NCBI GenBank assembly: GCA_014728035.1
Contig: WJMJ01000071.1
Location: 96,001-160,000, forward strand
Direction of reading: 5' to 3'
Length of the DNA: 64,000 nt
From: Promethearchaeota archaeon
Lineage (GTDB): Archaea > Asgardarchaeota > Thorarchaeia > Thorarchaeales > Thorarchaeaceae
A program made the position numbers and the translations under genes. Shown here piece by piece: positions 1-33,147 of this stretch; within the stretch, counting starts at the first letter, position 1; every line of letters begins with the position of its first letter. The notes beneath the pieces were generated by a model, which saw nothing but the letters and a program-made list of their open reading frames with translations, had not been told where the DNA came from and did no database searches.

Positions 1-184
1 GTGAATATCTCCATAATGAGTTTATTTTTGATGGAAACATACCTGCTTGAATCTCATCAATGACACTCATCATATCATAAATTGCAAAGAGTGGTGAACC
101 ACATACGCAATAGCTTGCCTTTGCATCAGCTGAGTGTATTCTGTGACACTGTGGGCATTCTAAATGGGTGATGTATGAGAACAT
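1..184 (-). CDS. thrC: Threonine synthase, N-terminal part (runs off the left edge)
   Basis: Not in the ORF track. Manual translation from ATG at 184: MFSYITHLECPQCHRIHSADAKASYCVCGSPLFAIYD...INSLWRYS, the CxxC..CxCGxPL..Y..SLWRY N-terminus typical of archaeal/bacterial threonine synthases. Confidence 0.75.
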   Translation of the reverse strand, partial: MFSYITHLECPQCHRIHSADAKASYCVCGSPLFAIYDMMSVIDEIQAGMFPSKINSLWRYS

Positions 185-21591: not shown

Positions 21592-21719
21592 TGGAAAACT
21601 CGCGTTCGACCCAGCTAAGTTCAAAAGACAGGCTTCCAATATGTTTCTGGGACCAATTGATGTGGAATTGGAAATTCCCAAATTAAATAACTAATATTCC
21701 TCAAATTGGAGGTTTGAAT

Positions 21720-24473
21720 ATGGCACGAGCTGAAAAAAGTAAAATTCAGACTCCAAGTACAGTTGAAGCAATTCGAATGGCATCAGCTTCAGTACTGGGT
21801 TCTACAACAAGTCAAGGATTTCCTCTGGGCAGCGCTATTGGATCAGGCAGTATGATGCAGCAAAATTCCGATAGTGTCGCATTGAATATCACTCCGCTAA
21901 TCTTTCTAATTCGTGATGGTGTTCTAAATTCAGAAGGATTAGAATTACTATCAGTCGAGTGGGATTTAGACCATGTGCCAGGGCCTGATGTTCTACCAGA
22001 ACAGCTTATAATTTCTGGAGGGCAATCTGAAGGGGTTGGGTCACATGTCTGTGTGCTTAGTTGGGAGAAAGGTGTAGTTGACCCATTCAAAATTGATGAC
22101 CATATGAAAAGGCTAGCTAAGAAGATTTCAGATATTGAACAAGCAATAGTTGAAAATGATGTGAGTTATGATACAGATGGTCTAACCGTGTTACGTCGAT
22201 TCAATGACAGACTAAATAATGTCATTTATGTTCAAATGATGGACAGGCAATTTCAAGGCTCGTGGGACTCGTTAATTCTGAAACCTGAACATGTTGATAA
22301 TGAGGCCATAATCAAACTAAGCTATATTGACGATTTTACAATGCTTCCCCCTGGTCCTAAAATTGTGAAGCGTCTGTCTCATGAACTTCTACTCCCTACT
22401 GGTTCTGAAGAAGAGATTATTGAACACTTTAGACACCGAATCCTTACTCCTACTGCAATTCACACTTTAGCACAGAAAGTTCCAGAAATTGGAAGAGCAA
22501 TCTTGAGTGAAGTCAACACTTATGCTTATAGTGCTGAGGAAGTTGATATCGCACGAGTAGCAATCGAATCCCTTAGTGATTTCATAGGCACTAGTGTAGT
22601 CACAGTTGATGCCCTCCAGGATTTACGAACAAAGGCATCAGATTTTGTGAACCATCTAGTGAATGCAGTCGATGTTTTTTCAGAACTAGTAGAAGCTCAT
22701 ATCACCTCAGGAAAACAGCTTACTTTAGATGAACACAAAGAGACTTTATTGGAAGACATTCGTCTTAGTGGACATCGCCTTGAGGGCATTGAGAAGAATT
22801 TGGCAAATGGTTTGGCTGAGGAAATTGTCGAGTCTGCAAAACGTGAGATGCCAATCATTGGTAAGATTCGAGCTTGGCAATTAAAGAGTATCTTCCGATA
22901 CTTCTTGGCATATTGTAAAAGAATATCTCAGTACTTTGCAGAAGAATTATCTCAATATATTGTTGTAACTGCAGCTCGAAAGGTATTCTTGGCTGCAATG
23001 CAAGAGTTCCGTTCTGAAAACACTGATGAAAAAACCGATGAAATGAGTGCTATGCTCTTTGAGAAATTCTACGGTGAACTTTTCCTTCAGCTAAATGCAG
23101 TGTTTGATAGGAAGGCATTCGAAGGATCCCGCGAGAGTGATTTTGCTGTCTTAATGCAGATTATTGCGAAAGATATGTCGGAAGCATTCAAGGATATTGA
23201 TATCTGGTCATTGATAAAATTCTCAGATATTGCAAAAATAACTCGTGCGGAAATAGTTCTAACCCATGCAGAAAACCCTGAATCTGAGGAAATTGTTCTT
23301 TCGGATTGGGGCCAAAAACTTGAAGCCCTCTTGACAAAGTTTGAAACACTGGTAGCTGACGTCATACCGGATATTGCAGATACCCTTCTTTCTAAACCTC
23401 TGATTCGAAGAATCATCTTGAAGATAAGAAATGAAGATGCGACTCTTGTACAAGAGTTAATGGCGATACTTGATGATCAAAAGGAGAAACCTGAGGAATG
23501 GATCGAAGAAGCATGGATGTGGATTGAAACGCTCAACTCTCAATTCGATGATGAAACTCCGCTTTCCAAACAACTGATGGATTTCCAGCGATTTGTACAT
23601 AATAAAGTTGGTGAAGGTGTTACTGCAAGAGCAATAGCTGGTAAGGTTGAACATGAGGCGAATGTTCGGGAACAGGCATATCAGGCTGAAGTTGATGCTT
23701 GGCAAGCAGAATGTGATCGAATTGAGGAGATTAACAAACCGATTCGAGAACACAATGCTAGAAGAGCAGAGCTTCTCTCAGATACACGTGCAAGATACAG
23801 TGCTGAAAAGAAAACCTACCAGGAACAACTGGAAAAGTATGAAAAAGACAAGTCTGCCTATGATAAAGCATATGAAGAGTACAGATGGAAACTTGCTCAA
23901 CATCAAGACGTAAAACGAAAATATGAAGAATTACTTGAATTATCCAAGACGGACCCTACTACTGAAGTTCCACCACCACCACCACCACCACCAAAAGAAC
24001 CTACTGAACTACCAAGAAAACCCGTGGAACCCCCTCCATTAGAACCTCGTCTCAGAGCAATAGAGGAGGATTATCCTTTGAAACAGGAACAACCACTACC
24101 TGAAAAACCTGAACCCTCTGAAGAAATGTTGCTCTATGTAGATCTTAGAGATTTACTAAACGAAAAACTTCTCAAAATGGACTCGCATCAAGATAAAATG
24201 GAATCACTTTTTGCTGAACGGTTGGATAAATTGGCAGCTGAGGGTACCAGCGCTACAAAGGGAATCAATATCAGCATTGGCGAGGAATTTTTGGAATTCA
24301 TGATGAACTCTGTAATGCGTGGTTTGGGACGTCTGTTACCAAGGCCCACAAGAGCATATTTGCGCGACCCCAAAGTTCCTGGATTGATCTACTTGGTGAC
24401 TTATGAGATTGAAGACTGTGAATTGACTGTGACGATTGGAAATAACTATCTGAAGATGGATGGAGGCAACTAA
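21720..24473 (+). CDS. Large helical hypothetical protein with Tyr-heptad coiled coil and polyproline segment
   Basis: About 917 aa; GGAGG SD at about 21708; (CCA)8 encodes P8 at 23970-23993. Confidence 0.85.
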   Translation: MARAEKSKIQTPSTVEAIRMASASVLGSTTSQGFPLGSAIGSGSMMQQNSDSVALNITPLIFLIRDGVLNSEGLELLSVEWDLDHVPGPDVLPEQLIISGGQSEGVGSHVCVLSWEKGVVDPFKIDDHMKRLAKKISDIEQAIVENDVSYDTDGLTVLRRFNDRLNNVIYVQMMDRQFQGSWDSLILKPEHVDNEAIIKLSYIDDFTMLPPGPKIVKRLSHELLLPTGSEEEIIEHFRHRILTPTAIHTLAQKVPEIGRAILSEVNTYAYSAEEVDIARVAIESLSDFIGTSVVTVDALQDLRTKASDFVNHLVNAVDVFSELVEAHITSGKQLTLDEHKETLLEDIRLSGHRLEGIEKNLANGLAEEIVESAKREMPIIGKIRAWQLKSIFRYFLAYCKRISQYFAEELSQYIVVTAARKVFLAAMQEFRSENTDEKTDEMSAMLFEKFYGELFLQLNAVFDRKAFEGSRESDFAVLMQIIAKDMSEAFKDIDIWSLIKFSDIAKITRAEIVLTHAENPESEEIVLSDWGQKLEALLTKFETLVADVIPDIADTLLSKPLIRRIILKIRNEDATLVQELMAILDDQKEKPEEWIEEAWMWIETLNSQFDDETPLSKQLMDFQRFVHNKVGEGVTARAIAGKVEHEANVREQAYQAEVDAWQAECDRIEEINKPIREHNARRAELLSDTRARYSAEKKTYQEQLEKYEKDKSAYDKAYEEYRWKLAQHQDVKRKYEELLELSKTDPTTEVPPPPPPPPKEPTELPRKPVEPPPLEPRLRAIEEDYPLKQEQPLPEKPEPSEEMLLYVDLRDLLNEKLLKMDSHQDKMESLFAERLDKLAAEGTSATKGINISIGEEFLEFMMNSVMRGLGRLLPRPTRAYLRDPKVPGLIYLVTYEIEDCELTVTIGNNYLKMDGGN
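23970..23993 (+). repeat. (CCA)8 trinucleotide repeat encoding polyproline
   Basis: ccaccaccaccaccaccaccacca read directly from the sequence. Confidence 0.95.
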
Positions 24474-26940
24474 AGTGTCTAGTAACTGGTTGGTTAAAAC
24501 ACGTCAGATGAGCGAAGCTGGAAAAGAGATATTCTTAGGTGAAGCTCTGGTAACTCACATGAGGAGTTCTCGAGACCGTCAATTGTTCAGACGGCGTATT
24601 GATGGGGAAGTTCCATTGGAGGATTTGATTCGTGAGTTTGCAGCTTTTTACCTTCACACATATCAAGGGACAATAGTAATTAGCTATGAAGATACTGGGA
24701 GCGTTCCTGCAGAAGAAAAAGAAAAGGTAGCAAAAGATGAGCAGAGTCTCTTACGAGAAGAAATCAAGCTAATCCTTGATCGCCGGTTTAATGAAGGGCT
24801 TTTCACATTAAAAACCATCAGTGAATTTGTTGTGCGTTTTTGTAATGAATGTACAACTGCTGCGACAGACGAAACTGTTAGAACACAAGCTTCTGAGCTC
24901 ATCAAGGAATATCTCACAAAAATTCCAAGTGAATTTTCTCCCAATTGTAGGATAGATTTTCTAAATGAGATCACTGGTTGGGCTAATGAGTGGAGAGAAG
25001 AACTCTATATTAAAGCATCAGGATTGAAGGAGAGTTCGTTATCACTTATTGATGAACTGACTCGTCCACACGACCAAGAGATTGTTGAAATTTCAGTCCT
25101 GAAACGAGGTATCAATCAAGTGATTGGAGAAACTGTATATCTTAGAAGTCAGATAACTCCTACTTCACTAGACCCGGAAATTTGGGAGAAGATTGTCGAT
25201 ACGGTTATCAAAAACCTTTGCAAAGGCAGTATTGAAACTATTGTAGCAAAGACTGTTCATGCTTTAAAACGAGAAATCTTAGAATTCATTGAAGATAAAC
25301 TGAAAACGCCGTATACAATTGAGAAATTAGAAACTGAATTGGGTACTTTTGTTGCAGAGCGTTTTTCAGAAGTCATTATGGAAAACCAGCAAATTGCATT
25401 TGATATTCTTGATTTTTTCACCCAAACTCCTGCTGGAACCTCACAATCTACTTTGAGTAGAAACGGAGTGAGGTCTGCCGAATCTTTAGCTGAAGGCCTA
25501 TTAAAAGCATCAACGGATATTGGTGCTGAAACAGAAGTAAAACCTGAAGACCAACCAGATGCACCAGCTTTCACTAAAGAAGAATTGGAACGGTTAGAAC
25601 GCTCGATAAAACGAATTGATAAACTGGAACGGACTCTTGAGAAACCTGTTAAGGGAATGTTAAAAGCCAGAGGTTTACGAGCATCAGAGTTAGATAAAAT
25701 TGATATCACCCTCTTGACAAAAGACCCTACAAGCTTACTTGGAATGGAAATTCAAGTACTAGAGGCACTCAAAAAGAAGATGCGTGTTCCTTCACCAGAT
25801 GAGGTCAAGAAATTATTAGAAGCACGCGAGCTTGTGAAGAGTGGTGCATTGAAATCTATGGGTGTTAGTTCTGCTTCTGATATGAGTCAGCAAAGAATTG
25901 CTGGTGAAACAATGATTGCATTACGAAACGACCTTGCATGGTATTCATTTATACCAACTTTGCATCCTGTTGTTCGTGTTGTTGAAACCTATCATCGTTC
26001 CAAACAAGACCTTCTAAGAACGAAAGCACTTCTGAAAAGTATCTATGAGGATGCGGATACTCATCTACAGAACCTTCGAGAAGAAATTCTCATTGATCTT
26101 ATGCAAGAGAGAATCTATGAAATGAAGACAGTTCATCCCCATCTTCAAACAGCATCAATATCCGCTTGGTTCCATGCTCGATTGTCTAATCGTGATATAG
26201 ATCATGCAGATAATCTATTACGCACTACACCAAGCCCCCTATTTACTGGAGTCTTAGAAAAACCATTGAATGTAGATAAACTTGAATTCAATAATTACAC
26301 TATTGCATTTGATGTTATGCAACGTTTCTTGAAGCGAGAACGAGTGAAGAAGATGGAGAAAGAAGAGGCTGCAGTACAGGCAAAAATAGAAGAAGAACTA
26401 ATAGCAGAACGAAAACGTGCATCGCTCAGCCCTCTTATCTGGATTTACACAAAAAGCCATACAGTATTTCGAGCAATTGGACGAGTTGGTACAAAAGGTC
26501 TTGAATGGACCGCGACGGATGATGCAAAGTGTGCGAATCTCCTTGCATACTATGTCAAAATGCATAGAGATAGACCATTTTGTCGTGTCTGTGGGAGCAC
26601 TCCAAAAGAGGGTGATTGTGAAACTCATGGGAAAGGGCACATGGTTAATGCAGATGATATTGATAATCTGTCTGTTTTTGTCCAGCGTGCAATCTCAGAC
26701 ATCAAGGATGGTCTCATTGGTCCAACTGCAACACCTATGACTCTTGAAGAAGCAAGAAGAATAGTAAGACGAGAAATAAACGGATTACGTAGAAAAGGGA
26801 AACTCTCTTCAAAGACAAATATTTCTAGTATGATGCCAGGAGATATCAATTATATTGTCGGTCCAGTTATTGCAAAGCTAATTGGAAAATACTTCAATGA
26901 ATCACTCGTATATGCAGCACGCAGAGTAGATTTTGCATAA
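24460..26940 (+). CDS. Large helical hypothetical protein with CxxC...CxxH zinc-finger-like motif
   Basis: 826 aa, overlapping the previous gene by 14 nt; FCRVCGSTPKEGDCETHG. Confidence 0.85.
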   Translation: MEATKVSSNWLVKTRQMSEAGKEIFLGEALVTHMRSSRDRQLFRRRIDGEVPLEDLIREFAAFYLHTYQGTIVISYEDTGSVPAEEKEKVAKDEQSLLREEIKLILDRRFNEGLFTLKTISEFVVRFCNECTTAATDETVRTQASELIKEYLTKIPSEFSPNCRIDFLNEITGWANEWREELYIKASGLKESSLSLIDELTRPHDQEIVEISVLKRGINQVIGETVYLRSQITPTSLDPEIWEKIVDTVIKNLCKGSIETIVAKTVHALKREILEFIEDKLKTPYTIEKLETELGTFVAERFSEVIMENQQIAFDILDFFTQTPAGTSQSTLSRNGVRSAESLAEGLLKASTDIGAETEVKPEDQPDAPAFTKEELERLERSIKRIDKLERTLEKPVKGMLKARGLRASELDKIDITLLTKDPTSLLGMEIQVLEALKKKMRVPSPDEVKKLLEARELVKSGALKSMGVSSASDMSQQRIAGETMIALRNDLAWYSFIPTLHPVVRVVETYHRSKQDLLRTKALLKSIYEDADTHLQNLREEILIDLMQERIYEMKTVHPHLQTASISAWFHARLSNRDIDHADNLLRTTPSPLFTGVLEKPLNVDKLEFNNYTIAFDVMQRFLKRERVKKMEKEEAAVQAKIEEELIAERKRASLSPLIWIYTKSHTVFRAIGRVGTKGLEWTATDDAKCANLLAYYVKMHRDRPFCRVCGSTPKEGDCETHGKGHMVNADDIDNLSVFVQRAISDIKDGLIGPTATPMTLEEARRIVRREINGLRRKGKLSSKTNISSMMPGDINYIVGPVIAKLIGKYFNESLVYAARRVDFA

Positions 26941-27288: not shown

Positions 27289-27357
27289 ACTGAAACTGTA
27301 TACTGGGCTGGATTTATATGTGAAATGTTTGCTCGAAAGTATTGCTGGCTGATTCCC

Positions 27358-28758
27358 ATGTCTAAGAAATTCATTCCAAATGGAGTGATGCCCGCATTGG
27401 TGACTCCATTCACCAAAGACGGCGACATCATGGAAGAAGGTTTCAGAGAAGTAATTGATTATACAATTGAAAATGGAGCTACTGGTGTTGTTCCGGCAGG
27501 TACAACTGGTGAATTTGTTTACATGCGTACTGAGGAACGAAAGAAAATACTCAAACTTACTGTTGAGTATGTTAACGAACGAGTTCCAATAGTTGCTGGG
27601 ACTGGTCAAAATAGCACCAAAGCTACCATTGAATTGACAAAATATGCTGCAGATATCGGTTGTGATGCAGCATTGGTTATTTCTCCCTTCTATTTGCGTC
27701 CCTCTGACAAAGGCTACTATGAACATTATGCGACCGTAGCTAGAAAGAGTGATCTTCCTATTATTCTCTACAATATTCCACAATGTACTCTAGGTGTGCT
27801 CAATAGCTCTCTAGTTGAGGATTTAGCTGAAATTGACAATATTGTTGGAATTAAGGATAGTAGTGGAAATATCCCACACACTTTAGATTTGATTGAGAAA
27901 GTTAAGGATAAGATACCTGTACTTATTGGACACGATGAGTGTTTTCTGTCAGCTACTGCTGCAGGAGCAAGTGCAGCCATTTTAGCCTCAGCTAATGTTA
28001 TTCCTCATATCTGGTTGGACGTTATGAAAAAAATACAGACTGGAAAATACGAAGAAGCAAAACAGCTTCAATACTCTGTTCAAACTCTTTCTAGAATTAT
28101 AACACGAAATGGAGGAGCTCCTCCTGCTAAAGCAGCTCTTCGAATAATGGGTATAAATGCAGGTCATGCAAGATTACCTTTGAATACTGGTGGCACATTA
28201 ACCCGCGAACTTCGAGAAGAAATAAGAATAGAGCTTGAAAAACTCGAGTTGATTAAGCCATTGCAACACCCTGAATTAGTCAAGGAAGTTGACATGAAGG
28301 AGCTTGTAATGGAATATGGTCTAAATGAAGAATTCCTCTCCGACTTGAAAATCGGGAATGGCAGAAGCAATATAGTTTCAGCAAGTGTAATTTCAGGACA
28401 AGCGAATGGACCTCTTGGTGAAGTTTTTGTAAAACTACTTACCACTCCTAAAATCGGCTATGAAGCCCTTTCAATAATACTCGAACCGAATCTTCGCGTA
28501 CGTCCTAGTAGCTTAATGCTACCAATGCGTCAAATACGTTCTATGAGACAAGCTTCACTCTTTTATGGCCCTGTTCAATCAGGTGCTGCAAAAGCTGTTT
28601 CAGAGAGTCTGAAAACTAGGATGATTCCAAAAGAGCAAGTAGAATCCAATGTAATGATTATGGCAATGGATGTAGACCTTAACTCAAGAGATCGTAGAGC
28701 AATAACAAGAGCTGCGGAAGAAGCCGTTTCAGCAGCACTAGAGGAGATTTGGAGGTAG
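27358..28758 (+). CDS. DapA/NAL-family class I aldolase fused to a degenerate formaldehyde-activating enzyme (Fae) domain
   Basis: PALVTPF, GTTGE, YNIPQ, GIKDSSG. C-terminus GPLGEVFVKLLTTPKIGYEALSIILEPNLRVRPSSLMLP...QASLFYGPVQSGAAKAV is Fae-like but lacks the GEAL..G.EVAH segment. Confidence 0.85.
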   Translation: MSKKFIPNGVMPALVTPFTKDGDIMEEGFREVIDYTIENGATGVVPAGTTGEFVYMRTEERKKILKLTVEYVNERVPIVAGTGQNSTKATIELTKYAADIGCDAALVISPFYLRPSDKGYYEHYATVARKSDLPIILYNIPQCTLGVLNSSLVEDLAEIDNIVGIKDSSGNIPHTLDLIEKVKDKIPVLIGHDECFLSATAAGASAAILASANVIPHIWLDVMKKIQTGKYEEAKQLQYSVQTLSRIITRNGGAPPAKAALRIMGINAGHARLPLNTGGTLTRELREEIRIELEKLELIKPLQHPELVKEVDMKELVMEYGLNEEFLSDLKIGNGRSNIVSASVISGQANGPLGEVFVKLLTTPKIGYEALSIILEPNLRVRPSSLMLPMRQIRSMRQASLFYGPVQSGAAKAVSESLKTRMIPKEQVESNVMIMAMDVDLNSRDRRAITRAAEEAVSAALEEIWR

Positions 28759-28763
28759 ATATA

Positions 28764-30239
28764 ATGGTGAAAGATTTCAAATTCGAAGGTGTATTTCCCG
28801 CACTTGTTACACCTTTTGATGAAAACGGAGTAAATGAAGAACAGTATCGAGCTCTTATTGACTATGTGATTAAAGCTGGTGCAACCGGAATTGTCCCATG
28901 TGGTACAACAGGTGAATTTACCAGCATGAAATTTGAAGAAAAAGTTGAAGCCATTAAGATTGCTTGTGATGCTACAAAAGGACGTGTACCTGTTCTTGCT
29001 GGAACTGGTGCTGCTTATACAAATGATGCAATCAAGATTACACATCGAGCTGCTGAATTTGGTGCGGATGCTGCTTTGGTTGTTTCTCCTTATTTCTTGA
29101 AACCCACAAACAAAGAAATCTTTGAACATTATGAGAAGATAGCTAGAGCATGTGAACTACCACTTTTCCTCTATAATATTCCTCAAGTCACAGGTGTGAT
29201 GCTTGATTGGAAACTCATTGATGGACTTCGAGAGGTTGAAGGTGTTATTGGAATGAAAGATTCTAGTGGGAATCTTGTAAACCTTACTACCATTCTTGTT
29301 AGAAGGCCTGACGACTTCCAAGTTGTAATTGGACATGATGAAGTAGCCCTACCTGCATTTGCTACTGGCTGTGATGGAGCAATCCTTGCTAGTGCAAATA
29401 TATTCCCAGATCGCTATATCAAAATGCAAGCACAACTAGCTCAAGGTGACCTGAATGAAGCTCTCATTATTCAAAGGAGCATCCAAAAGACAGTTCGATT
29501 AATAGTGAATCGTGGTGGTGGTGCTATTGTTAAAGCTGCTCTTAACATGATGGGTATCCAAGTTGGAGATCCACGTCAACCGTTACTACTTGGAGATGTT
29601 CCATCCTATGATGACTTGGATGAAATCCGTACATGTCTGGAAGATCTTCTCCTCATTAAACGTGGACCTGTTAAGTTCAAGAAGGGTGATAATGTCGTCG
29701 TTGCTGAGAGCTATCCTATTGCCGTTGGTATGGTTCCTGAAATCATTACCGACTTAGAATTTATGCATGGTGAAGCACTCTGTGGTGAGGGCCAAGAAGT
29801 AGCTCATGTTGACTTGATAATGGGCCTTCGAGATGGGCCAATGCACGTGGCTGTAGAGAATGCTGGAAAAAGAGTGGAGGGATATCATTCTTCCAATGTA
29901 ATAAGCGGACTCGAACCTACTACAATATTTGCTCCAACTGTAACAATTACCCACGAAAAGCACAAAGATATGGTATACAATGTAGCACAACAAGCAGTAG
30001 TAGATGCCGTAAACCGAACAGTTACTGACCATGTACTTCCTGAAGAATTACTGAAGGATTTGGTCATTGCAGCAAATGTTTTCGTACATCCAAATGCTGT
30101 TAATCCAAAAAGAGTACATATCAATAATTTCCGAGCAGTTCGATTTGCAATCCGTAGAGCTATCGAGAAACGAGAGAGTGTTTCAGAAGTACAACTCCGC
30201 AAGGAGTCAGCTCGTCATCCCTTTGCATATCGTCCATAA
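28764..30239 (+). CDS. DapA/NAL-family class I aldolase fused to a formaldehyde-activating enzyme (Fae) domain
   Basis: GTTGE, YNIPQ, GMKDSSG. C-terminus GEALCGEGQEVAHVDLIMG..DGP, PTVTI, AQQAVVDAV, VFVHPNA, NNFRAVRFAIRRA, ARHPF is a canonical Fae pattern. GGAGGT SD at 28751. Confidence 0.88.
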   Translation: MVKDFKFEGVFPALVTPFDENGVNEEQYRALIDYVIKAGATGIVPCGTTGEFTSMKFEEKVEAIKIACDATKGRVPVLAGTGAAYTNDAIKITHRAAEFGADAALVVSPYFLKPTNKEIFEHYEKIARACELPLFLYNIPQVTGVMLDWKLIDGLREVEGVIGMKDSSGNLVNLTTILVRRPDDFQVVIGHDEVALPAFATGCDGAILASANIFPDRYIKMQAQLAQGDLNEALIIQRSIQKTVRLIVNRGGGAIVKAALNMMGIQVGDPRQPLLLGDVPSYDDLDEIRTCLEDLLLIKRGPVKFKKGDNVVVAESYPIAVGMVPEIITDLEFMHGEALCGEGQEVAHVDLIMGLRDGPMHVAVENAGKRVEGYHSSNVISGLEPTTIFAPTVTITHEKHKDMVYNVAQQAVVDAVNRTVTDHVLPEELLKDLVIAANVFVHPNAVNPKRVHINNFRAVRFAIRRAIEKRESVSEVQLRKESARHPFAYRP

Positions 30240-30561: not shown

Positions 30562-31223
30562 CCATTTGTTTAGTAGCTTTCTTCTTTTTCAACAGTTAAA
30601 TCATCCGGATTTCGAGATTTTTGATATTTCGAAATACACCTTGTCAAAATGCGTCACAGTTGCATTCTATGGTACTTTGGAATTCAAAATCTACTACCGT
30701 TCGTATAAATAACCCAGTGTGAATATGAAAATAAAACGCAATCTCTCTCAAATCGCGTCACTACCAAACTTTGGAGAATTAGTCCATGGCCGAGGTCCAT
30801 AAATATAGTACATTAAACGCCTTAAAAAACCCGAGAGAGAAAGCTACACTCAACACAAAAGACGGGGATATTGATGTTGTTTCATACTATCTATTTCTCA
30901 ACTATCCCTTACCCGGACTAATCGAAGCTAGCATTTTGCAAACTTCAATGAATGAGATGACATTATTCCATTGCTAATGTGTTGATGGGACCATTATGGA
31001 CCCGGCCACCTTTTCTAAAAGAGAGCAGGCCTCAGACTGCTCTTGAGCAATCATTCCATTTCAGGTCAAACAGGGGTAATTTCATCATTGGCCTGCATTT
31101 CTAATAGTATCGAATAGCTACAAAAACATAGGGGAATGTAACCACAGGTGAAAACTTTGTCCAAGTTTTGCACAACGGGAATGTTCTTAGACAAGTACTC
31201 TTCTAGTAATCTATGTGGTTTTC

Positions 31224-32357
31224 ATGGTCGATGAAAAAAGAATGATAAAACTCCTTAGAGATTTGATTCAAACCAACTCTGAGAGTCCACCTGGTCGAGA
31301 AGTTGACGTTGCTAATGTACTAAAACAACATATGGCAGATTTTGGAATTGGGTGCAAGTCTGTTGGCCCCTCAGATAGACCGAATCTGATTTTTTTCACT
31401 CATGAGAACACATTAGGCCCTCTGGTAATTCATGGCCACATGGATACTGTCCCAGCTGGACCTTTAGAAAATTGGTCTCATGATCCTTTTGCTGGAAAGA
31501 TAGTTGGAAACAAGCTTTATGGGCGAGGTGCATGTGATATGAAAGGCCCTGTCACAGCCTTAGTAGAAACAATGATACTTTATGCTCAAGAAAAGCACGA
31601 AACACCTCTTGTGATGTTAGCAACTTCAGATGAAGAGAGTGGTTGTTCTGGTGCAGAAGAGGTAGCTGCGAGTGGAATATTATCTGGAGTGAAATATGGG
31701 ATATGTGCAGAACCTACAAGTCTAGATGTACTTGTTGGTGAAAAAGGGATGTTTTGGTCCAAAATTGTTGCTAGTGGTAAATCTGCACATGGATCTCGTC
31801 CTGAAGAAGGCATCAACGCAATTGCATTAGCTGTCAAAGGGCTTGAATGTATAACTCAGAAGGCATTTCCATACACAACTGATGAATTACTAGGCACTCC
31901 TACATTGAATGTTGGTATGATAAATGGGGGTATTAAAATCAATGTTGTTCCAGATTCTTGTGAGATTCACCTGGATATGAGAATTGTAAAAGGTCAGACA
32001 ACCGAAGATGTTATGGAACAAATTCGAGAACGGTTTAATGACGCAGGTCTTTCTGAGCGAGTTAAAATTGAATATATTCATGGTAAACCCGCAGTTTCAA
32101 CACCTATAGACAGTCCGATTGTTGATGCAAGTCTTGCTGCAGTGGAGAAGGTTACAGGGTCGAGACCAACACCATATGCTGCCACATATGGAACTGATTG
32201 TTCAGTCCTTCAACCAAAGATTGGAATAACCAATGTAATCTGTGGACCAGGATCAATAGAGCAGGCACATCAACCTGACGAGTTCATAAATCTTGAACAG
32301 ATGTATCAATCTGTGGATGTGTATCTTGAAATTGCAAGTCAAATCCTCAAACCATAG
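31224..32357 (+). CDS. M20 family deacylase (ArgE/DapE-like)
   Basis: HGHMDTVP, YGRGACDMKG, DEE, AEPT, GKSAHGSRP, NVVPD, GTD, GPG...AHQPDE. Confidence 0.92.
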   Translation: MVDEKRMIKLLRDLIQTNSESPPGREVDVANVLKQHMADFGIGCKSVGPSDRPNLIFFTHENTLGPLVIHGHMDTVPAGPLENWSHDPFAGKIVGNKLYGRGACDMKGPVTALVETMILYAQEKHETPLVMLATSDEESGCSGAEEVAASGILSGVKYGICAEPTSLDVLVGEKGMFWSKIVASGKSAHGSRPEEGINAIALAVKGLECITQKAFPYTTDELLGTPTLNVGMINGGIKINVVPDSCEIHLDMRIVKGQTTEDVMEQIRERFNDAGLSERVKIEYIHGKPAVSTPIDSPIVDASLAAVEKVTGSRPTPYAATYGTDCSVLQPKIGITNVICGPGSIEQAHQPDEFINLEQMYQSVDVYLEIASQILKP

Positions 32358-32364
32358 AATAAGC

Positions 32365-33147
32365 TTACTTTACACATTTTCTAGCGATAAGCGCAGCAAA
32401 TGAACCCGCCCCTAATCCATTTCCAATATTTACTACTGCTAATCCTGGAGCACAGGATTGTAACATTGAAGCAAGTGCAGTTTCTCCTTTACCTCCATGG
32501 CCATAACCTGTTGGAATTGGCACACCGATGACAGGGGCATTTACAAGTGAAGCAACAACAGTAGGTAGAGCGCCTTCCATTCCCGCCAACACCACGACTG
32601 CTGAAACATCTTCCTGTACTATTTTCTTAATGGGCTCAACTAATCGATGGATACCCGCAACACCCACATCAAAAAATGAAATTGTATCGACCCCCATAAC
32701 TTTCGCAACGAGAATTGCCTCCCATGCATAAGGGATATCAGAAGTACCTGCAGTCATTACGGCAATTTTTCCCTTAATTTCTGGTGGGACCCATTTTTCA
32801 GAGCTTGCTAATACAGTATAATGCTGACCTGCTCCTTTTGCATCAATTGTATACTCTTCTAAATTCTCTTGAAGTGTTTGCAATTTTTCAGGACTGACCC
32901 GAGTCATTAAAGCATATCCAGAATTCTCAATCATTGATTTAGCAATCGCAACCAAATCTTCTCCATTTTTCGATTCTGAAAAAACCACTTCAGGAATTCC
33001 ACTTCTCTCTTCTCGAGCACCATCGATTCGAGCTAAATCCCCAATTACTCCGATTGACAATTCTTTTAATTGTTTTTCTGCTTCTGCTTGCGATATCTTT
33101 CCCTCTACTAAATCTCGTAGAATTGTCTTTGTGGATTTCATTTTCAC
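32365..33147 (-). CDS. larB: Nickel-pincer cofactor biosynthesis protein LarB
   Basis: ARID..R..RSGIPEVVF...K, TAGTSDIP, DVGVAGIHRL, AGMEGALP, VPIPTGYG, SCAPGLAVVNI.NG.GA. Confidence 0.92.
   Translation of the reverse strand: MKMKSTKTILRDLVEGKISQAEAEKQLKELSIGVIGDLARIDGAREERSGIPEVVFSESKNGEDLVAIAKSMIENSGYALMTRVSPEKLQTLQENLEEYTIDAKGAGQHYTVLASSEKWVPPEIKGKIAVMTAGTSDIPYAWEAILVAKVMGVDTISFFDVGVAGIHRLVEPIKKIVQEDVSAVVVLAGMEGALPTVVASLVNAPVIGVPIPTGYGHGGKGETALASMLQSCAPGLAVVNIGNGLGAGSFAALIARKCVK

Follow-up and report, generated by a model that had tools for sequence, protein, structure and literature searches.

The window analysed here comprises 64,000 nucleotides of an Asgard archaeal contig (WJMJ01000071.1, positions 96,001 to 160,000), and attention centred on two adjacent plus-strand genes within it, A and B, both of which are named DapA in databases. 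Each encodes an aldolase domain of the DHDPS family fused to a C-terminal Fae domain. The complete set of Fae motifs is found in neither polypeptide and only in A and B jointly; the losses in the two copies are complementary, not random, and the aldolase parts are not those of DapA. The pattern suggests that the two proteins probably constitute one enzyme and points to an obligate A:B heteromer. The reaction that we favour for it, with confidence a little above even, is the interconversion of pyruvate, methylene-tetrahydromethanopterin (methylene-H4MPT) and water with 4-hydroxy-2-oxobutanoate (HOB) and H4MPT.

Gene A (27358..28758, +; 466 aa) and gene B (28764..30239, +; 491 aa) were delimited by their open reading frames (ORFs), translations and Pfam matches. 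In A, the aldolase domain covers residues 8-288 (27379..28221, +; Pfam DHDPS, E=2.7e-76) and the Fae domain residues 338-462 (28369..28743, +; PF08714, E=5.2e-25, 88.7 bits against a cut-off of 27, profile positions 11-135 of 159), the latter also recognizable from its modelled fold (AF2 and Foldseek). In B, the aldolase domain covers residues 6-275 (28779..29588, +; E=2.2e-72) and the Fae domain residues 336-487 (29769..30224, +; E=7.7e-30, 104.4 bits with the same cut-off), with the whole Fae profile covered. The aldolase domains were also aligned, that of A with 120 A-type sequences and E. coli DapA (L023), and that of B with 110 B-type sequences. Orthologues of A form 119 clusters with identities of 62-87%, and those of B form 109 clusters at 65-92%. 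The stop codon of A (TAG, 28756-28758) is separated by 5 nt from the ATG of B (28764), and the sequence GGAGG at 28751..28755 (+), within the final codons of A, reads as a ribosome-binding site for B. The two genes had first been noticed from their sequence, and in its coordinates, the 5-nt gap, the Shine–Dalgarno (SD) sequence inside the end of the first gene, the motifs GTTGE, YNIPQCT (A) or YNIPQVT (B) and KDSSG, and the Pfam matches to DHDPS and Fae that it proposed to look for in both proteins, that original prediction agrees with the present results. A longer ORF for A could begin at 27325, although 466 aa is the length of most orthologues; TTTATAT at 27313..27319 (+), about 40 nt 5' of the ATG at 27358, is a possible archaeal TATA box, in which case the transcript start would fall 3' of the alternative ATG at 27325. 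The closest records to the window proteins are from Candidatus Thorarchaeota (Asgard; Thor below), and the genome bin holding the window (as C37:96001-160000) is 4.33 Mb in size, 97.9% complete and 8.5% contaminated.

Complementary decay of the Fae domains

The Fae domains of the pair were compared with M. extorquens Fae (1y5y), six canonical Asgard Fae-Hps proteins and six complete single-gene aldolase::Fae fusions (F-type; loci L024-L029). B retains the N-terminal GEAL...AH-x-D motif (GEAL at 336-339, His348 and Asp350), the VF-x-HP motif (F440-V441-H442-P443) and the C-terminal A-x-HPF motif (H485-P486-F487, in at least 97% of orthologues). All three are lost from A, where the His of the first has become Ser or Thr and its Asp Gly or Ser, F-x-H has become D-x-D, and the protein ends about 25 residues early. 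A in turn retains the central E-PNL loop (EPNL, residues 376-379) and YGPVQ-x-G-A-A-K (YGPVQ, residues 403-407), each in 98-100% of orthologues, whereas B has lost the former by a 5-residue deletion and has also lost the GPAQ motif. Across more than 100 orthologues of each partner, the retained motifs are 97-100% conserved. Twelve complete Fae domains share 45 invariant columns, of which B alone keeps 17 and A alone six, while five are kept in both and four in neither; with conservation of at least 80% as the measure, A keeps 11 and B keeps 22, and jointly just four are missed outright. Against the Fae model TIGR03126 (cut-off 118.05), B scores just above (119.4) and A below (83.8). The original prediction had described a complete TIM barrel fused to a Fae-fold domain in each protein: the aldolase::Fae architecture is indeed present in both, but neither Fae domain is complete alone, the two being complementary, half-degenerate partners.

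The active site of Fae sits between subunits. Because the Fae losses are complementary and are accompanied by an asymmetry at a tyrosine of the aldolase domain (Tyr107, described below), with both features held across more than 100 orthologues of each partner, the sequences argue for an A:B heteromer. A composite Fae site would then lie at the B/A interface, with B contributing the His/Asp motif, FxHP and the C-terminal HPF, and A contributing the EPNL and GPVQ loops.

Structural models are consistent with this arrangement. An AF2 model of the Fae domain of A (pLDDT 83.8) was matched by Foldseek to 1y5y/1y60 with a TM-score of 0.83-0.85, a root-mean-square deviation of 2.0-2.8 Å and E~1e-12, the second-best structural match having a TM-score of only 0.41, and the Fae domain of B aligns across the whole length of 1y5y. 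The assignment of both C-termini to Fae is thus upheld by profile hidden Markov models and, for A, by predicted structure as well. In a prediction of the complex formed by the two Fae domains, the ipSAE was 0.88 compared to 0.68 for the best control, contact agreement between runs was at least 61% and partner pLDDT at least 84; the mark taken as support is one reached by 58 of 80 solved complexes and by 2 of 110 mismatched pairs. In the predicted interface, GEAL, His348 and Asp350 of B are opposite Glu369..Pro377-Asn378 of A. The calculation covered the two Fae domains only; its passing of the mark may reflect likeness to the solved Fae homopentamer and does not show binding, and we give the complementary sequence pattern more weight than the complex model.

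The distribution of the fusion was surveyed in 300 genomes of the phylum, among which related genomes are not independent. Fae matches occur in 71 of the 76 sampled genomes of the window's family, nearly always as two low-scoring matches that correspond to the pair. Other families carry Fae-Hps, with an open frame of about 400-430 aa, either alone or beside a complete F-type fusion some 500 aa long. A and B genes are always adjacent, with the 5-nt spacing and the internal SD sequence, and the layout A - 5 nt - B recurs, neighbours included, in the complete Thor genome CP070761.1. The F-type, found in Loki-type Asgard families (L024-L029) and likewise labelled DapA, is a single complete DHDPS::Fae gene with all Fae motifs intact; its Pfam Fae score is about 195 bits, versus about 100 for the split pair, and its identity to the pair is about 46%. 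More distant B-like proteins (46% identity) belong to Bathyarchaeia, and directly 5' of them lies an intact A-like gene (loci L037-L041); this A-like gene shows the same motif losses, in a less advanced state. Defined as an A-like gene followed by a B-like gene, with complementary Fae loss, the split pair is present in the window, in CP070761.1 and in Bathyarchaeia (L037-L041). One Bathyarchaeota contig, CAVZKK010000012.1 (L037:4581-6022), has frameshifts in its A-like gene and in the 430-aa gene described below, probably owing to assembly error; both genes are intact in three other Bathyarchaeia genomes.

In a maximum-likelihood tree of aldolase domains, Bathyarchaeia A groups with Thor A (support 93/93) and Bathyarchaeia B with Thor B (96/92), with Thor B on a long branch. 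Since the A and B clades are each joint to Thor and Bathyarchaeia, the duplication is older than the event, descent or transfer, through which the two phyla came to share the pair. The history suggested is an old duplication of a complete single-gene fusion, a form still seen in Loki-type Asgard, after which the copies would have lost complementary parts.

An aldolase of the DapA family that is not DapA

The database name of A and B is explained by their scores of 231.8 and 230.8 bits, respectively, against the NCBIfam dapA equivalog TIGR00674 (cut-off 206.15), and by their nearest solved structures, which are true DHDPS (E~1e-48; the DHDPS structures compared were E. coli DapA, 1dhp, and B. 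anthracis 3hij/1xky). When residues are numbered by E. coli DapA (L023) aligned with 120 A-type and 110 B-type orthologues, much of the catalytic machinery is seen to be conserved. The Schiff-base Lys161 is kept in 100% of A-type and 96% of B-type sequences, Tyr133 in 100% of both, and Thr44 in 100% and 95%, the pair Thr44/45 being conserved; the corresponding residues are Lys166, Tyr138 and Thr49/Thr50 in gene A, and Lys165, Tyr137 and Thr48/Thr49 in gene B. What has changed is Arg138, which in DHDPS binds the carboxylate of aspartate semialdehyde. This position is Cys in 95% of A-type sequences (Cys143 in gene A), Val in 93% of B-type sequences (Val142 in gene B) and Cys in the F-type, and the absence of the DHDPS-specific Arg, first noticed in the two window proteins, can now be extended to at least 93% of their orthologues. 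In the 97.9%-complete genome there is no DapB_C domain, no diaminopimelate epimerase (DapF) and no DHDPS-family gene beyond A and B, which also settles the question, raised at the outset, of a separate true dapA. With Arg138 replaced, and with DapB, DapF and other DHDPS genes missing, A and B are not DapA. Sub-threshold NCBIfam matches of the aldolase part are to NAL, KDG aldolase and HpaI-like families.

A second difference separates the two copies from each other. Tyr107 of DHDPS reaches across the tight dimer into the active site of the neighbouring subunit. It is Tyr in 88% of A-type sequences (Tyr112 in gene A) and in the complete F-type, but Phe in 99% of B-type sequences (Phe111 in gene B), and in an A:B dimer only the aldolase site of B would thus be complete, the tyrosine of A being the one to reach over into it.

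One-carbon metabolism and the homoserine node

The original prediction recommended that the genome be searched for mch, mtd and ftr, and all three are present (Mch, 415 bits; Ftr, 178 bits; Mtd, 330 bits), with Ftr and Mch adjacent on contig C9, making methylene-H4MPT a native metabolite. The Mtd gene (C69:35672-36499) comes from a bin with the 8.5% contamination given above, and no Mtd was found in another genome of the genus (G128, 97% complete). The window's genome has no Fae domains besides those of A and B, no Hps scored above cut-off in it, and the Fae-Hps model NF009833 (cut-off 274) is matched by the Fae part alone (63 bits for A, 95 for B). With no Hps and no other Fae, the aldolase fused to Fae is left as the one plausible partner for formaldehyde.

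No aspartate kinase, Asd, Hom or ThrB was found in the genome, and two ThrC genes are above cut-off. LysW was not found either and, with no DapB or DapF, no lysine route was detected in the genome. The genome also encodes a canonical PanB (384 bits). The left edge of the window (window 1-13; C37:95051-96013, minus strand) is where a third ThrC-like gene ends, its score of 145 bits falling short of the thrC cut-off.

A link between the fusion and homoserine is provided by a gene for a 430-aa protein that has 64-88% identity among Asgard families and 72% in Bathyarchaeia, matches no Pfam or NCBIfam family and gave nothing usable among the Atlas features. It usually precedes the F-type fusion (directly upstream in families f9 and f27), and on one Bathyarchaeia contig it is just upstream of the split pair. 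Homologues were located at L025:3057-4352, L029:3010-4290 and L037:2521-3786, and the window's own genome carries one, 67% identical, at C103:172742-174007 (= L031:6737-8029; minus strand). In two families that lack Fae, f5 and f22, the same gene instead opens a conserved cluster in which it is followed, in this order, by genes for a class I/II aminotransferase, homoserine dehydrogenase (Hom) and aldehyde:ferredoxin oxidoreductase (AOR), found at L033:4580-9926 (f22) and L034:4304-9759 (f5). Asd was found in just 1 of 28 genomes of f22 and 1 of 21 of f5, and the AOR of this cluster may link aspartate and aspartate semialdehyde in both directions, bypassing aspartate kinase and Asd. HOB is what the aldol addition of formaldehyde to pyruvate yields, and it is also the keto acid that corresponds to homoserine. 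Since the 430-aa gene lies beside either the aldolase::Fae fusion or a transaminase and Hom, the simplest intermediate that the two settings could share is HOB; and if the shared intermediate is this 2-oxo acid, it is understandable that a transaminase accompanies Hom but not the aldolase. The 430-aa protein is a strong candidate for a missing enzyme at the homoserine/HOB node. The earlier suggestion of a HOB/homoserine role is strengthened in part, gene neighbourhoods tying the fusion family to this node.

The distribution of the two modules follows a similar division. Lineages lacking Asd carry either the fusion or the AOR-Hom cluster. The former are f1, f12, f13 and f27, with Asd mostly absent and Hom absent, and among them only f1 and f27 have the 430-aa gene; the latter are f5 and f22, with Asd scored as absent, Hom present and no fusion. 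Families f3, f4, f7, f19 and f14 have both canonical Asd and Hom, and no fusion, 430-aa gene or AOR-Hom cluster. The distribution of ThrC was also considered as a discriminator and was found to be uninformative, ThrC-like genes being nearly ubiquitous and present also in families without either module.

An AF2 model of the 430-aa protein (pLDDT 88.6) shows a TIM barrel with an N-terminal helical domain. Foldseek matched it to DAHP synthase and class II aldolase (TM~0.3), the VIA-wide search to glutamate mutase E (Z 12.6, level with many other TIM barrels), and the Atlas search to U32-like proteins (TM 0.55/0.70). Its other neighbours include a NUDIX gene and an ECF vitamin-type S-component gene, and in f5 an MFS transporter is nearby. 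In at least 20 Thor genomes of several genera, the 430-aa gene stands divergently beside a ThrC-like gene fused to a PadR domain, the latter being divergent from both the ECF S-component gene and the 430-aa gene. The example in the window's genome (L031:8845-10341, on C103) has a ThrC-like PLP domain and a C-terminal PadR DNA-binding domain, and may serve as a metabolite-sensing regulator, either in place of an enzymatic role or in addition to one. ThrC frames of about 500 aa occur in many Asgard genomes.

Proposed reaction and its alternatives

Each subunit would be a class I (Schiff-base, pyruvate-type) aldolase joined to a Fae domain. In the scheme proposed, the composite Fae site would interconvert methylene-H4MPT with H4MPT and formaldehyde, and the aldolase site would join formaldehyde to, or release it from, the enamine of pyruvate held on the Schiff-base lysine. 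The net activity would be that of a 'pyruvate hydroxymethyltransferase', functionally analogous to PanB. For its direction, the chances are about even that it is anabolic, HOB being converted to homoserine by a transaminase and on to threonine and methionine; this is somewhat likelier than cleavage into pyruvate and the one-carbon (C1) pool, which we regard as rather improbable. A broader proposal, offered tentatively and with more doubt than belief, is that Thorarchaeia and Bathyarchaeia (and the Loki-type lineages, with the single gene) build the C4 skeleton of homoserine, threonine and methionine not from aspartate but from pyruvate and Wood-Ljungdahl-derived methylene-H4MPT, with this enzyme, together with the 430-aa enzyme, replacing aspartate kinase, Asd and Hom.

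Several points weigh against this scheme. The sequence does not reveal which substrates the enzyme takes, and A retains the Lys, Tyr133 and Thr44 equivalents, so that its aldolase site may still act alone. Many f9 genomes have a complete fusion operon as well as canonical Asd and a Hom-ThrC cluster, and the fusion is consequently not simply 'the' replacement for Hom; in families f17 and f20, ThrC-like genes occur although both modules are missing. In the window's genome no homoserine kinase was found, the candidates being a sub-threshold ApgM-like match and weak GHMP kinase matches, and the organism may be auxotrophic for several amino acids including lysine, which weakens the anabolic argument. 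The structural matches of the modelled 430-aa protein suggest a generic TIM barrel only. The kinship among genomes means that tallies by family overstate the number of independent events, and the AOR and transporter neighbours of the 430-aa gene (MFS in f5, the ECF S-component in Thor) would fit a catabolic or salvage role.

Such a role is the best of the alternatives, although we consider it unlikely. The same heteromer and reaction would be run in the opposite sense, HOB arising from homoserine or an imported compound via the 430-aa enzyme and being cleaved, with the composite Fae site trapping the released formaldehyde as methylene-H4MPT for the Wood-Ljungdahl/C1 pathway. Trapping of released formaldehyde is the role of Fae in Fae-Hps, AOR enzymes typically oxidise aldehydes, and both the retention of the canonical Asd/Hom/ThrC route in f9 and the possible multiple auxotrophy (DapB, DapF and LysW not found) are compatible with it. 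Niche catabolic modules, however, are not typically part of the near-universal conserved core of a family, as the pair is (71 of 76 genomes, 65-92% identity), and lineages that keep ThrC without Asd would be left with no other source of homoserine.

Even if the Fae domain does handle a C1 unit, the substrate pair could be a different one: another 2-oxo acid donor, a larger 4-hydroxy-2-oxo acid, or a hydroxymethyl transfer to a cofactor, as in PanB-like synthesis of ketopantoate or vitamin salvage. Members of the DHDPS family take many 4-hydroxy-2-oxo acids, as the sub-threshold matches reflect, a vitamin-type S-component and a NUDIX gene adjoin the 430-aa gene, and the sequence of the pocket does not tell these substrates apart. 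We nevertheless judge this improbable, because a fused Fae implies formaldehyde as the aldehyde, which with pyruvate as donor can only give HOB, and because the alternative neighbours of the 430-aa gene are enzymes acting at the level of homoserine. The ketopantoate version was rejected as unnecessary given the canonical PanB.

Much less probable still is that the Fae-like domains are non-catalytic modules for oligomerisation or regulation, and A and B independent paralogous aldolases with no composite site. Neither domain has the canonical motifs by itself, and that of A falls short of the TIGR03126 cut-off, but on such a view one would have to account for losses so complementary that only 4 of 45 invariant positions are gone from both, for the strict conservation of what remains in over 100 orthologues, for the same complementary pattern in Bathyarchaeia, for genes that are always co-inherited and translationally coupled, and for a complex model in which the motifs kept by B lie opposite those kept by A. 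That A or B is a true DapA of lysine biosynthesis with an accessory Fae-like domain is hardly credible, since the scores above the dapA cut-off (232 and 231 bits versus 206) and the closeness to true DHDPS structures are outweighed by Cys or Val at Arg138 in more than 93% of orthologues, by a near-complete genome with neither DapB nor DapF, and by the lack of an Asd to make the second substrate.

Among known systems, a close parallel to the proposed pyruvate hydroxymethyltransferase is Fae-Hps of methanogens and many other archaea, canonical genes for which occur in other Asgard families of the same phylum. There too Fae is fused to an aldolase that has formaldehyde as a partner, and formaldehyde is presumably passed between the sites. 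The pair differs in having a class I pyruvate aldolase of the DHDPS family in place of Hps, which has the OMP-decarboxylase fold, in its reversed domain order, with Fae C-terminal, and in being split into two half-degenerate subunits. With DapA it shares the fold, Lys161, Tyr133 and Thr44/45, and it departs from DapA in the Cys or Val at Arg138, the loss of Tyr107 in B, the C-terminal Fae and the absence of a lysine-pathway context. The Loki-type F-type has the same architecture and presumably catalyses the same reaction, with Tyr107 kept and Cys at position 138, whereas in Thor and Bathyarchaeia the fusion is duplicated and the original functions are divided between the two copies. PanB would be alike in net chemistry, since in both cases C3 of a 2-oxo acid would receive a hydroxymethyl group from a methylene-pterin, but its fold and mechanism are unrelated (it is metal-dependent and single-domain, and uses methylene-tetrahydrofolate and 2-oxoisovalerate), so that the likeness would be one of analogy and not of membership. 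The step from pyruvate and formaldehyde to HOB and then homoserine is also that of the engineered homoserine cycle, where it works in vivo with promiscuous enzymes such as E. coli RhmA, and where HOB is described as non-native (PMC8879981). RhmA is a class II metal aldolase acting on free formaldehyde in a synthetic pathway; the enzyme proposed here would be a dedicated, natural class I aldolase coupled to H4MPT.

The fusion had been put forward as undescribed, and no description of a DHDPS-Fae fusion was found in the literature searched, nor anything relevant on homoserine, tetrahydromethanopterin and aldolases in archaea, or on Thorarchaeota and homoserine. The pair extends the bifunctional principle of Fae-Hps, in which Fae is joined to an aldolase, and possibly underlies a new natural pathway. 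If the proposed reaction is correct, this would be the first natural, dedicated enzyme to join pyruvate with a carrier-bound C1 unit to give HOB, a reaction known only from promiscuous enzymes in engineered methanol-assimilation pathways, and it would be a candidate part for synthetic C1 assimilation. It would also revise the amino-acid and C1 metabolism of archaea that rank among the most abundant in sediments (Thorarchaeia, Bathyarchaeia and Lokiarchaeia), and correct a widespread database error affecting hundreds of proteins named DapA, with a bearing on how metabolism is reconstructed for the archaea most closely related to eukaryotes. Independently of its substrate, the pair is an unusually clean case in which the copies of a duplicated gene have lost complementary parts of an active site shared between subunits, which would force a heteromer.

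The other genes around the pair in the window (CutA1, two large ORFs, a gene with a metallo-beta-lactamase fold, an M20 deacylase, an AIRC-like gene and AlaX) keep their synteny in a second Thor genome and offer no metabolic hint. The two large ORFs overlap (21714-24473 and 24460-26940, +; 919 and 826 aa), match no Pfam family and have syntenic counterparts of 867 and 814 aa in CP070761.1. The M20 gene, of the ArgE/DapE deacylase family, lies about 1 kb 3' of gene B (31215-32357, +), and M20-family peptidases are also encoded divergently upstream of Bathyarchaeia pairs (L040:14-1501 and L041:2-1399, minus strand); the subfamilies differ, and the shared proximity may be coincidence. The gene at 32365-33147 (-) specifies a 260-aa protein with an AIR-carboxylase (PurE-like) domain in its C-terminal half only, which from its size and layout we take to be possibly LarB-like.

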